The notes beneath the pieces were generated by a model that did not search any database, had not been told where the DNA came from, and saw only the letters and a list, made by a program, of their open reading frames with translations. Source: Escherichia phage vB_EcoP_CU10EC. Taken from it: a stretch of 64,000 bases of DNA. Position numbers and translations under genes: made by a program. Each line of letters starts with the position of its first letter. Position 1 is the first letter of the stretch. This document shows, in pieces, positions 61,627 to 63,100 of this stretch. The stretch is from sequence record PQ435408.1; one strand, written 5' to 3'.

Positions 61627-61823
61627 TTACAAGCCTCTCTATTATAAATATAAGCATCGTGTGTGGTCATATTGTTGTATTGACGGGTTACTTCTAAATA
61701 AGTAAGAGCATATTCATGGTCACGTTGTTCTTTCTTGGTTCGGCAATGACCACATTTACCATCCCATTGGGATACATAACCTTTGCCACATTTGCATTGC
61801 TTATCCATTAGGATTCTCCACAA
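61623..61823 (-). CDS. Small Cys-rich (zinc-ribbon-like) protein
   Basis: 66 aa; CKCGKGY ... CGHC pattern. Confidence 0.4.
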   Translation of the reverse strand: MWRILMDKQCKCGKGYVSQWDGKCGHCRTKKEQRDHEYALTYLEVTRQYNNMTTHDAYIYNREACK

Positions 61824-62181
61824 AATATTTGTACATAGCTTTCACTAGCTTCTCTTTAATAACCTCACCATGACATGGCTTCGGATAACAGAAGCACTGT
61901 AAGACCAATCCTTTCTCATCAATGGCTTTATTACCAAGACGATTAAGTTCATCCAGCACAACTGGATTACCTTTATCGATCTGCTCCTGTAGCCAGACCT
62001 TATACTTAGCAATTACTTGCTCTCTGGTTCCATGTTTACCAATGACGAATGGATTACCTAATGGGGAGCCACGCCCAATATACTCTCCGGATTTACCATG
62101 ATGTTTATTAACAATAATGATTGGACGTGCAGATACACCTAGCAAAGCATTGGTGTCATCACCTAATTGGATAGTCTTCAT
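61801..62181 (-). CDS. DUF4326-family protein
   Basis: 126 aa; YIGRGSPLGNPF ... CFCYPKPCHGEV matches the DUF4326 signature as I recall it. Confidence 0.5.
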   Translation of the reverse strand: MKTIQLGDDTNALLGVSARPIIIVNKHHGKSGEYIGRGSPLGNPFVIGKHGTREQVIAKYKVWLQEQIDKGNPVVLDELNRLGNKAIDEKGLVLQCFCYPKPCHGEVIKEKLVKAMYKYFVENPNG

Positions 62182-62492
62182 GGTTTAAGTACCTGAAATG
62201 CGAACACAGGACGTTTACTACGCCACTGGTTCATAGCTAATTCACTAGTTTCAGAACCATCATGTAAGTTATAAATAAATGAGATTACATAGTCTGGTTC
62301 TTCTGGGAAATTCTCTGTAGAGAATGGTAGACCTGCCTTCTTAAGGATAGGAACCAGAGGAGATTCAGCATTGCAGTAGAGGGTAAACTCTTCATTGAAT
62401 GCCTGGCTTGTTTGAGATACATAATCAATATTACGCATCATTTTATCTACATCTGTAAATGTAGCGTCATGAACTACTAGAATAGTTTTCAT
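62178..62492 (-). CDS. Hypothetical early protein
   Basis: 104-aa ORF. Confidence 0.45.
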   Translation of the reverse strand: MKTILVVHDATFTDVDKMMRNIDYVSQTSQAFNEEFTLYCNAESPLVPILKKAGLPFSTENFPEEPDYVISFIYNLHDGSETSELAMNQWRSKRPVFAFQVLKP

Positions 62493-62743
62493 ACCTTCCT
62501 CAATGTTCCATAAATGCTATTATCGACAATACTCAAATCACAGAAACCAATCTCTTCTTGTCTCCCAGAGGATACCCAGATATTGTTTTCTGTTAGCTTA
62601 GGTTTCTTAGAGAATCCTATTAATGAGGTATTAGCACTCTTATATTGTCGTGGTAATAATGCTATATACTTAACCCAGTGAGGCACTTGGATAGTATGCC
62701 TCATATATTCTACGTTCTTGCCTGTAGGATATGTAATAATCAT
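62489..62743 (-). CDS. Hypothetical early protein
   Basis: 84-aa ORF. Confidence 0.4.
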   Translation of the reverse strand: MIITYPTGKNVEYMRHTIQVPHWVKYIALLPRQYKSANTSLIGFSKKPKLTENNIWVSSGRQEEIGFCDLSIVDNSIYGTLRKV

Positions 62744-63100
62744 TTAGTACCTCACAACATATACAGGTTTATTTAGTCTCTGCATGATATCAATCATGTG
62801 CTTGGTTCCTTTAGATTTACCATCCCAGAAACATACAGCAGCATCTGCAAATTCACCCATTTCCTGGTTACGTCTATAACCAGCAGATTTTCCATATTTA
62901 TCCCAGTTTGCTGGAAAATTATGAATAGGCATTTTGTTATTAGCCCATAGACTATATGCAAGCATATCTGCTCCACGAGCCATACCACATACCAATTCTG
63001 GGCATTCTGGTATATTCCCTGAATTTACTAACTTCTGTAGTTCAGCAATCATAAGATTAGCGTCAGTAAAATCACGTCCACCGGCTACAATTAGTTTCAT
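62744..63100 (-). CDS. SLOG-domain protein (DUF2493-like)
   Basis: 118 aa; IVAGGRDF ... GMARGADMLA ... AGYRRNQEM ... AVCFWDGKSKGTKH matches the DUF2493/SLOG pattern. Confidence 0.6.
   Translation of the reverse strand: MKLIVAGGRDFTDANLMIAELQKLVNSGNIPECPELVCGMARGADMLAYSLWANNKMPIHNFPANWDKYGKSAGYRRNQEMGEFADAAVCFWDGKSKGTKHMIDIMQRLNKPVYVVRY

Follow-up and report, generated by a model that had tools for sequence, protein, structure and literature searches.

The stretch analysed here, called the window throughout, is 64,000 nucleotides (nt) of DNA from Escherichia phage vB_EcoP_CU10EC (PQ435408.1). The subject is a block of small genes near its end, which includes a DUF4326 protein, a SLOG-domain protein and an A1S_2505-family protein. 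The window belongs to a Gamaleyavirus-like relative of phage N4: a search with 3.1 kb of the region finds 76 phage records that are 84-93% identical, most of them Gamaleyavirus (e.g. IME11, ECBP1, Bp4 and St11Ph5), and an open reading frame (ORF) of 3487 amino acids (aa), the size of a virion RNA polymerase (vRNAP), also lies within it. The block runs from 61013 to 63855 on the minus strand and consists of ten ORFs of 66-126 aa each, mostly with 4-nt start/stop overlaps, and RNAPII subunit genes (60141-60959 and 58766-59983) lie directly downstream. An earlier note on this DNA had described about ten tightly packed small ORFs, and ten on the same strand were counted. The box which that note drew, 61801-63100, does contain both of the domain genes it named, but takes in only four of the ten ORFs and misses two related genes, a divergent copy of DUF4326 at 63547-63855 and the A1S_2505-family gene at 61276-61626.

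The gene at 61801-62181 (minus strand, 126 aa) encodes a canonical DUF4326 protein, the ortholog of N4 gp12. Pfam and PHROG agree with the earlier note on this assignment, with a PF14216 match of 79.1 bits (E 4.1e-22) that clears the cut-off of 25 and covers 79 of the 82 profile positions, and a phrog_464 match at 4.5e-40. The motifs from which the family had been recognised are found at residues 33-45 (EYIGRGSPLGNPF) and 96-106 (CFCYPKPCHGE), so written on the minus strand, and the protein keeps all of [GM]R[GP][ST]xLGNP[FY], R53 and CxCxPxxCH. The diversity of the family was taken from a library of 50%-identity clusters, and a profile-based homolog search gave mostly near-identical Gamaleyavirus proteins. 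Among the cluster representatives there are 5578 relatives at E<=1e-3, and about 3% of sequenced phages carry DUF4326. At least 145 of 150 diverse representatives keep residues R37, N43, R53, C96, C98, P100, C103 and H104, a pattern which, read from the alignment, looks enzyme-like.

The predicted structure of the DUF4326 protein (predicted local distance difference test, pLDDT, 92.2) has a strand at 21-25, a long loop carrying GRGSPLGNPF, two helices and a strand at 92-96, followed by the loop FCYPKPC and a helix that begins at H104. A Foldseek search with this model returned no significant match. There is a weak likeness, at 9-13% identity and absent from the Foldseek results, to the RapZ C-terminal domain (PDB 5o5q/5o5s) and to Cys-phosphatases, and Iyer et al. 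2022 placed DUF4326 in the Rhodanese/Cys-phosphatase superfamily, whose hallmark is a three-layer alpha/beta fold in which a strand ends in the catalytic Cys and a phosphate-binding loop and a helix come next. The arginine signature CX5R (or CX4R) was sought in DUF4326 and is absent: the loop reads C98-X5-H104, with histidine in 147 of 150 representatives and arginine never at that position. DUF4326 may thus have a Cys-phosphatase-like scaffold, for which the model gives moderate support. Sequence and profile searches of the PDB with three of the proteins gave nothing meaningful, and therefore no family member with a solved structure is detectable by sequence. Two labels carried by DUF4326 proteins were rejected as statements of function. 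"Ribonucleotide reductase NrdA-like" seems to trace to T4-like ORFs called nrdA.1 beside nrdA/nrdB (H81, H87 and H88; phrog_24867) and not to any likeness to the reductase, and "GTP-binding domain" has no Pfam or NCBIfam support. One relative, P0117, is 89% identical to the DUF4326 protein of the window, and NCBI assigns it to a 2.76-Mb contig of Enterococcus faecium, an unexpected place for a coliphage gene that could be due to contamination or a faulty assembly.

The second domain gene, at 62744-63100 (minus strand), encodes a standalone SLOG protein of 118 aa that belongs to the YAcAr family, as the earlier note had proposed under the older name DUF2493. PF10686 (YAcAr) matches over its full length at 43.5 bits (E 2.8e-11), above its cut-off of 28.2, phrog_289 matches at 8.8e-33, and the motifs quoted in that note lie at residues 7-11 (GGRDF), 39-45 (GMARGAD) and 91-99 (FWDGKSKGT). 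GGRD and GMARGAD are invariant, and the protein has both the glycine-rich loop after strand 1 and the GxAxGxD that mark YAcAr SLOG domains. The invariant polar residues are D10, D45, R77, N78, D93, S96, T99 and H101. Cyclic-nucleotide binding, for which the earlier note suggested assays, is one of several possible readings.

An AlphaFold2 model of the SLOG protein (pLDDT 96.5) shows a minimal five-stranded Rossmannoid domain with helices. Its Foldseek neighbours, at a probability of about 1.0 and 14-19% identity, are ShosA (E 3e-5, TMq 0.73), DprA (Helicobacter pylori, E 4e-4), the LOG-like protein TT1887 and the SLOG domain of ThsA bound to 3'-cyclic ADP-ribose (3'cADPR; PDB 7uxs, E 2e-3, probability 1.0). 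PF02481 (DNA_processg_A) was sought in the SLOG protein at E<=0.1 and gave no match, and because of this and of the length of only 118 aa the protein is not taken for a DprA; the likeness is at the level of the fold alone. The LOG motif PGGxGTxxE is likewise absent from the protein, where WDGKSKGTKH stands instead, and there is no LOG Pfam match.

The SLOG gene is accessory and dispensable within the genus. In a sample of 13 N4/Gamaleyavirus loci, to which all counts out of 13 refer, it is present in 5, and N4, IME11 and ECBP1 are without it. In the loci that lack it the 73-aa and 84-aa ORFs that flank it in the window abut exactly, and against L002, L004 and L006 the gene of the window behaves as a precise gene-sized indel.

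The domains of the block occur joined in single polypeptides of other viruses. Protein P0247 (226 aa) has an N-terminal half 55% identical to the SLOG protein of the window (E 4e-44) and a C-terminal half 54% identical to its DUF4326 protein (E 2e-35), while P0261 is a fusion of A1S_2505 and DUF4326, and P0241 is a fusion of the Cys4 motif of gp13-like proteins to DUF4326. The Pfam partners found in 26 scanned multidomain DUF4326 representatives are YAcAr SLOG (7), DprA-like SLOG (3), NADAR (3), cpYpsA (1), YpsA (1) and Macro (1). Viral contigs also carry NADAR+DUF4326 and DUF4326+YAcAr fusions, as well as a 3285-aa polyvalent protein with NADAR, cpYpsA and DUF4326 (L024 2-9856). Two DUF4326 proteins of about 1010 aa start with a phage portal domain (L043 7220-10249; L051 7178-10249), and the presence of DUF4326 inside portal-fused and polyvalent proteins suggests delivery from the virion with the DNA. 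Of 68 viral loci from beyond the N4/Gamaleyavirus group, which are partly non-independent phylogenetically, 11 have a YAcAr SLOG gene no more than 10 kb from DUF4326, and the baseline for this count is a YAcAr SLOG anywhere in the genome in 1185 of 50,697 phage genomes (2.3%). Several of the 11 have the SLOG gene next to DUF4326 or overlapping it, and one has the two fused. From these gene arrangements we read DUF4326 (gp12), SLOG and A1S_2505 as parts of one functionally linked toolkit, whose members are fused polypeptides in other viruses.

The A1S_2505-family protein of the block (61276-61626, minus strand, 116 aa) is the ortholog of N4 gp14 and matches NF049995 ("A1S_2505 family phage non-structural protein") at 83 bits (E 1.7e-23), where the cut-off is 45. 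Relatives carry this gene in two allelic forms, with identities of about 90-100% or about 50%. The form in the window, common to IME11, ECBP1 and 24-32N, is motif-deleted: in the alignment GSN..G.HGAGAA has become TTN..G.HNNAAA, and nine residues with RIGCGLAG are deleted. Some GenBank records name this gene "ADP-ribosylglycohydrolase". The canonical form of A1S_2505 aligns weakly with one Macro sequence in hhalign (P 3.9e-4, probability 35%) with collinear motifs, and Pfam and PDB sequence searches for a Macro likeness returned no matches; that the family may be related to Macro is a lead. A1S_2505 was also considered as a cryptic SLOG domain and rejected (hhalign probability 0.3%).

At the other end of the block, 63547-63855 (minus strand) encodes a second, degenerate DUF4326 protein of 102 aa, the ortholog of N4 gp9. 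It matches phrog_464 at 1.8e-14, and the Pfam DUF4326 profile gives E 0.031, which does not pass the cut-off. A hidden Markov model built from canonical DUF4326 alone matches the family of this paralog at 6e-12 to 3e-9, and hhalign gives 99.7% between the two, a value possibly inflated by one canonical DUF4326 (L029) within the paralog alignment. By alignment, the paralog has lost the arginine of GRGSPLGNPF and the whole CxCxPxxCH motif, and despite this loss it is kept in 13 of 13 loci. The gene is left unannotated in GenBank PV933157 (L001 6273-6575), where there is no CDS between locus positions 6270 and 6946.

The order of these genes is that of N4 (70,153 bp; NC_008720), which was among the related loci from IMG/VR and from whose annotated record the gene correspondences were read. 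The window proteins are 74% identical to gp9 (63547-63855), 82% to gp11 (62178-62492), 94% to gp12 (61801-62181, labelled "DUF4326 domain-containing protein" in RefSeq), 71% to gp13 (61623-61823) and 46% to gp14 (61276-61626), and in N4 gp9-gp14 are likewise arranged in this order and orientation ahead of the RNAPII genes gp15/gp16. In N4, gp1, gp2, gp15 and gp16 are early products of the injected virion polymerase (PMC4496689). The position and orientation of gp9-gp14 beside gp15/gp16 led us to infer the same class for them, and the block would then be a vRNAP-transcribed early operon of a Gamaleyavirus-like N4 relative, as the early-region context of the earlier note had it. In records that begin at the genome end, the block starts 1.7-3.2 kb from that end. 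Gene identities, orthology, domain fusions, adjacency, folds and residue conservation are what the analysis shows, and we are confident of the gene identity, orthology and functional coupling of these domains.

Five of the remaining ORFs of the block, all on the minus strand, are of unknown function. The 104-aa gp11 ortholog (62178-62492; phrog_7827 1.5e-58) is in 13 of 13 loci and lies immediately upstream of DUF4326 in every one. A 76-aa ORF (63324-63554; phrog_20151 1.5e-51) is variable among relatives and found in 2 of 13 related loci, a 73-aa ORF with cysteines (63097-63318; phrog_6887 6.8e-42) in 9, an 84-aa ORF (62489-62743; phrog_1972 3.6e-18) in 12, and the last gene of the block, 86 aa long (61013-61273; phrog_14487 1.4e-60), in 9. 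The small Cys4 protein orthologous to gp13 (61623-61823) matches phrog_13804 at 5.5e-33 over residues 6-66; because the match starts at residue 6, its start is probably the ATG at 61808 and not the TTG at 61823. Over residues 6-34, which hold the Cys4 motif, this protein shares 59% identity with the extension at the N-terminus of P0241.

Two hairpins bracket the block, both on the minus strand and both found by a consensus scan as pattern matches only. One, at 63911-63924, is terminator-like and lies upstream of the block, and the other, at 60993-61007, has a 6-bp stem, a 3-nt loop and a T-run and lies between the block and the RNAPII small-subunit gene. T-runs follow both hairpins, and the loop of 60993-61007 reads GGA on the opposite strand. 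In format this second hairpin resembles the promoter hairpins of the N4 virion polymerase, but it may be no more than a terminator. A sigma-70 promoter scan found 8 sites against 14.6 in shuffled sequence; this shortage is consistent with transcription by a polymerase other than that of the host, and is uninformative by itself. The GC content is 0.37 at the window end (62001-64000) against about 0.43 elsewhere.

Iyer, Burroughs and Aravind predicted a role for viral SLOG domains in acting on cADPR-like signals, and one for DUF4326 in processing the phosphates that ADP-ribose (ADPr) derivatives carry on their ribose (PMC7824862, PMC9503650). Their SLOG-DUF4326 association was independently reproduced here, and the fusions of close homologs of the window proteins support their prediction of joint processing of ADP-ribose-like nucleotides. 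In addition, ORF83, a SLOG-like phage protein, is a reported inhibitor of Avs3 whose mechanism is unknown, and its homologs in amoeba viruses end in a DUF4326 domain at the C-terminus (bioRxiv 10.1101/2025.06.06.658234). The idea of the earlier note that these are host-takeover or signalling-interference factors agrees with PMC7824862 and PMC9503650, with the reported anti-Avs3 activity of ORF83 and with the fusions. Members of the genus can do without the SLOG gene (5 of 13 have it). That these proteins counter host defence early in infection is plausible but unproven.

The best-supported mechanism, which we hold tentatively and put not far below an even chance, is the early processing or sequestration of an NAD+/ADPr-derived ribose-phosphate nucleotide from host defence. 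In its favour are the domain assignments, the orthology to N4 gp9-gp14, the fusions and close neighbourhood of the domains in other viruses, the enzyme-like conservation of DUF4326, the match of the SLOG model to the ThsA domain bound to 3'cADPR, and the published predictions together with the report on ORF83. The proteins would act within minutes of DNA entry on a nucleotide that serves host immunity as a signal, toxin or adduct. The SLOG domain would bind this nucleotide or cleave its N-glycosidic bond, and the invariant Arg/Asn pocket and Cys-rich strand-loop-helix of DUF4326 would bind a phosphate linked to the ribose or take it off. Having lost their motifs, gp9 and gp14 would probably be non-catalytic partners, binders or decoys. 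Substrate class, catalytic roles and anti-defence purpose are here inferred. A bolder form of this mechanism, which we judge unlikely, would make gp12-type DUF4326 a phosphoesterase of a new, Cys/His-dependent class, able to destroy an immune signal or toxin that derives from ADPr and is phosphorylated on its ribose, with gp9 as a regulatory or decoy subunit and with optional SLOG and macro-like modules that widen the range of defences neutralised; the whole would be a modular early anti-defence operon common to N4-like phages, jumbo phages and giant viruses of amoebae.

Several observations weigh against the processing of a defence nucleotide. The Cys loop of DUF4326 is C-X5-H, not C-X5-R, and contains prolines, and its three cysteines and one histidine could equally form a structural metal site. 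The top structural neighbours of the SLOG model, ShosA and DprA, bind single-stranded DNA (ssDNA). N4 has no SLOG gene, nor do 8 of 13 close relatives, and DUF4326 therefore needs no SLOG in cis. Finally, DUF4326 adjoins the nrd genes (nrdA/nrdB) in T4-like phages, a hint of nucleotide metabolism.

That last position, which is also the source of the "NrdA-like" label, fits a role in nucleotide pools or DNA metabolism, where DUF4326 and a LOG-like phosphoribohydrolase SLOG would serve replication by altering the nucleotides of the host or by dealing with modified or damaged ones, and would leave immune signals alone. A PHROG "DNA repair protein" family also matches DUF4326, fusions to replication and restriction-modification components have been described (Iyer et al. 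2021, PMC7824862), TT1887 is among the fold matches of the SLOG protein, and the authors of EVADES proposed an AMP phosphoribohydrolase activity for ORF83 (bioRxiv 10.1101/2025.06.06.658234). We consider such a role unlikely. The fusion partners are overwhelmingly ADPr-processing domains (SLOG, NADAR and Macro) and not replication enzymes, the SLOG protein has WDGKSKGTKH in place of the LOG motif and no LOG Pfam match, and the genes stand before those for replication, in what is taken to be the first operon expressed. The fold matches raise another explanation, in which the SLOG protein binds ssDNA as DprA and ShosA do, and protects injected DNA, loads a recombinase on it or mimics the ShosA antitoxin. 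ShosA and H. pylori DprA are the best Foldseek matches, relatives in GenBank are labelled "DNA processing protein DprA", and ShosA is known to neutralise ShosT through ssDNA and RecA binding (PMC11961720, PMC12961424). At 118 aa, however, the protein is a bare Rossmannoid core without the extra domains, SAM or winged-helix, that flank the DNA_processg_A domain of DprA, Pfam returns YAcAr and not DNA_processg_A at E<=0.1, identity to the structural matches is 14-19%, and the invariant D10, D45, R77, N78, D93, T99 and H101 resemble a small-molecule site. ORF83, too, is without the dimerisation and RecA-binding residues of DprA, according to EVADES (bioRxiv 10.1101/2025.06.06.658234), and altogether an ssDNA-binding role seems very unlikely.

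The listing of ORF83 as an Avs3 inhibitor of unknown mechanism (bioRxiv 10.1101/2025.06.06.658234) can be read in yet another way, with one or more of the proteins inhibiting a host sensor (e.g. an Avs-type STAND protein) by direct binding and the enzyme-like folds serving only as scaffolds. The motif-less DUF4326 (gp9) and A1S_2505 (gp14), kept under conservation, would fit binding better than catalysis. Yet the canonical DUF4326 and the SLOG protein keep all of their invariant polar residues, and direct inhibitors are usually restricted to a lineage, whereas the DUF4326 and SLOG families span thousands of diverse viruses. We consider direct inhibition distinctly unlikely.

The feature is already known, since the same genes, 90-96% identical and with domain labels, are in GenBank and RefSeq and the SLOG-DUF4326 association is in published papers. 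As a genome observation it is ordinary; N4 gp12 is a convenient entry point to the biochemistry, as N4 is a tractable model that has DUF4326 in what is probably its first-expressed operon. If the predicted processing of ADP-ribose derivatives holds, these genes would add an enzyme class to the counter-defence repertoire of phages, and could also help to explain why the host ranges of therapeutic N4-like coliphages differ when the SLOG cassette is all that sets them apart. The presence or absence of SLOG could underlie host-range differences among relatives.

Compared with known systems, the block is closest to that of N4 itself, which has no SLOG gene where the window has one, and whose gp14 is the canonical A1S_2505 form where the window has the motif-deleted form. 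The RapZ C-terminal domain and the phosphatases PTEN and the DUSPs carry CX5R, and DUF4326 has CxCxPxxCH instead. The ThsA SLOG domain of Thoeris (7uxs) shares the Rossmannoid SLOG fold and is a precedent for binding a cADPR-type signal, but in ThsA, a sensor of the host, it is joined to a SIR2 effector, whereas the phage protein of the window consists of the domain alone and is 14% identical to it. ShosA and DprA, which bind ssDNA and RecA, are much larger multi-domain proteins than the window SLOG. ORF83 (Gao et al. 2022, as described in bioRxiv 10.1101/2025.06.06.658234) is, like the window protein, a small standalone SLOG/LOG-like protein, annotated Smf/DprA; its proposed site, R-N ... T-x-D, has the same spacing as R77-N78 ... 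T99-x-H101 of the window SLOG, a spacing also described for the amoeba-virus homolog of ORF83 that is fused to DUF4326. On a comparison with the published description of ORF83, the two may be homologs. Lastly, in the SLOG+DUF4326 fusions (P0247; Tunisvirus YP_009506880 in the EVADES preprint) both halves are close homologs of the two window proteins. In the window itself these are encoded separately, some 560 bp and two intervening ORFs apart, and the SLOG gene is optional within the genus.

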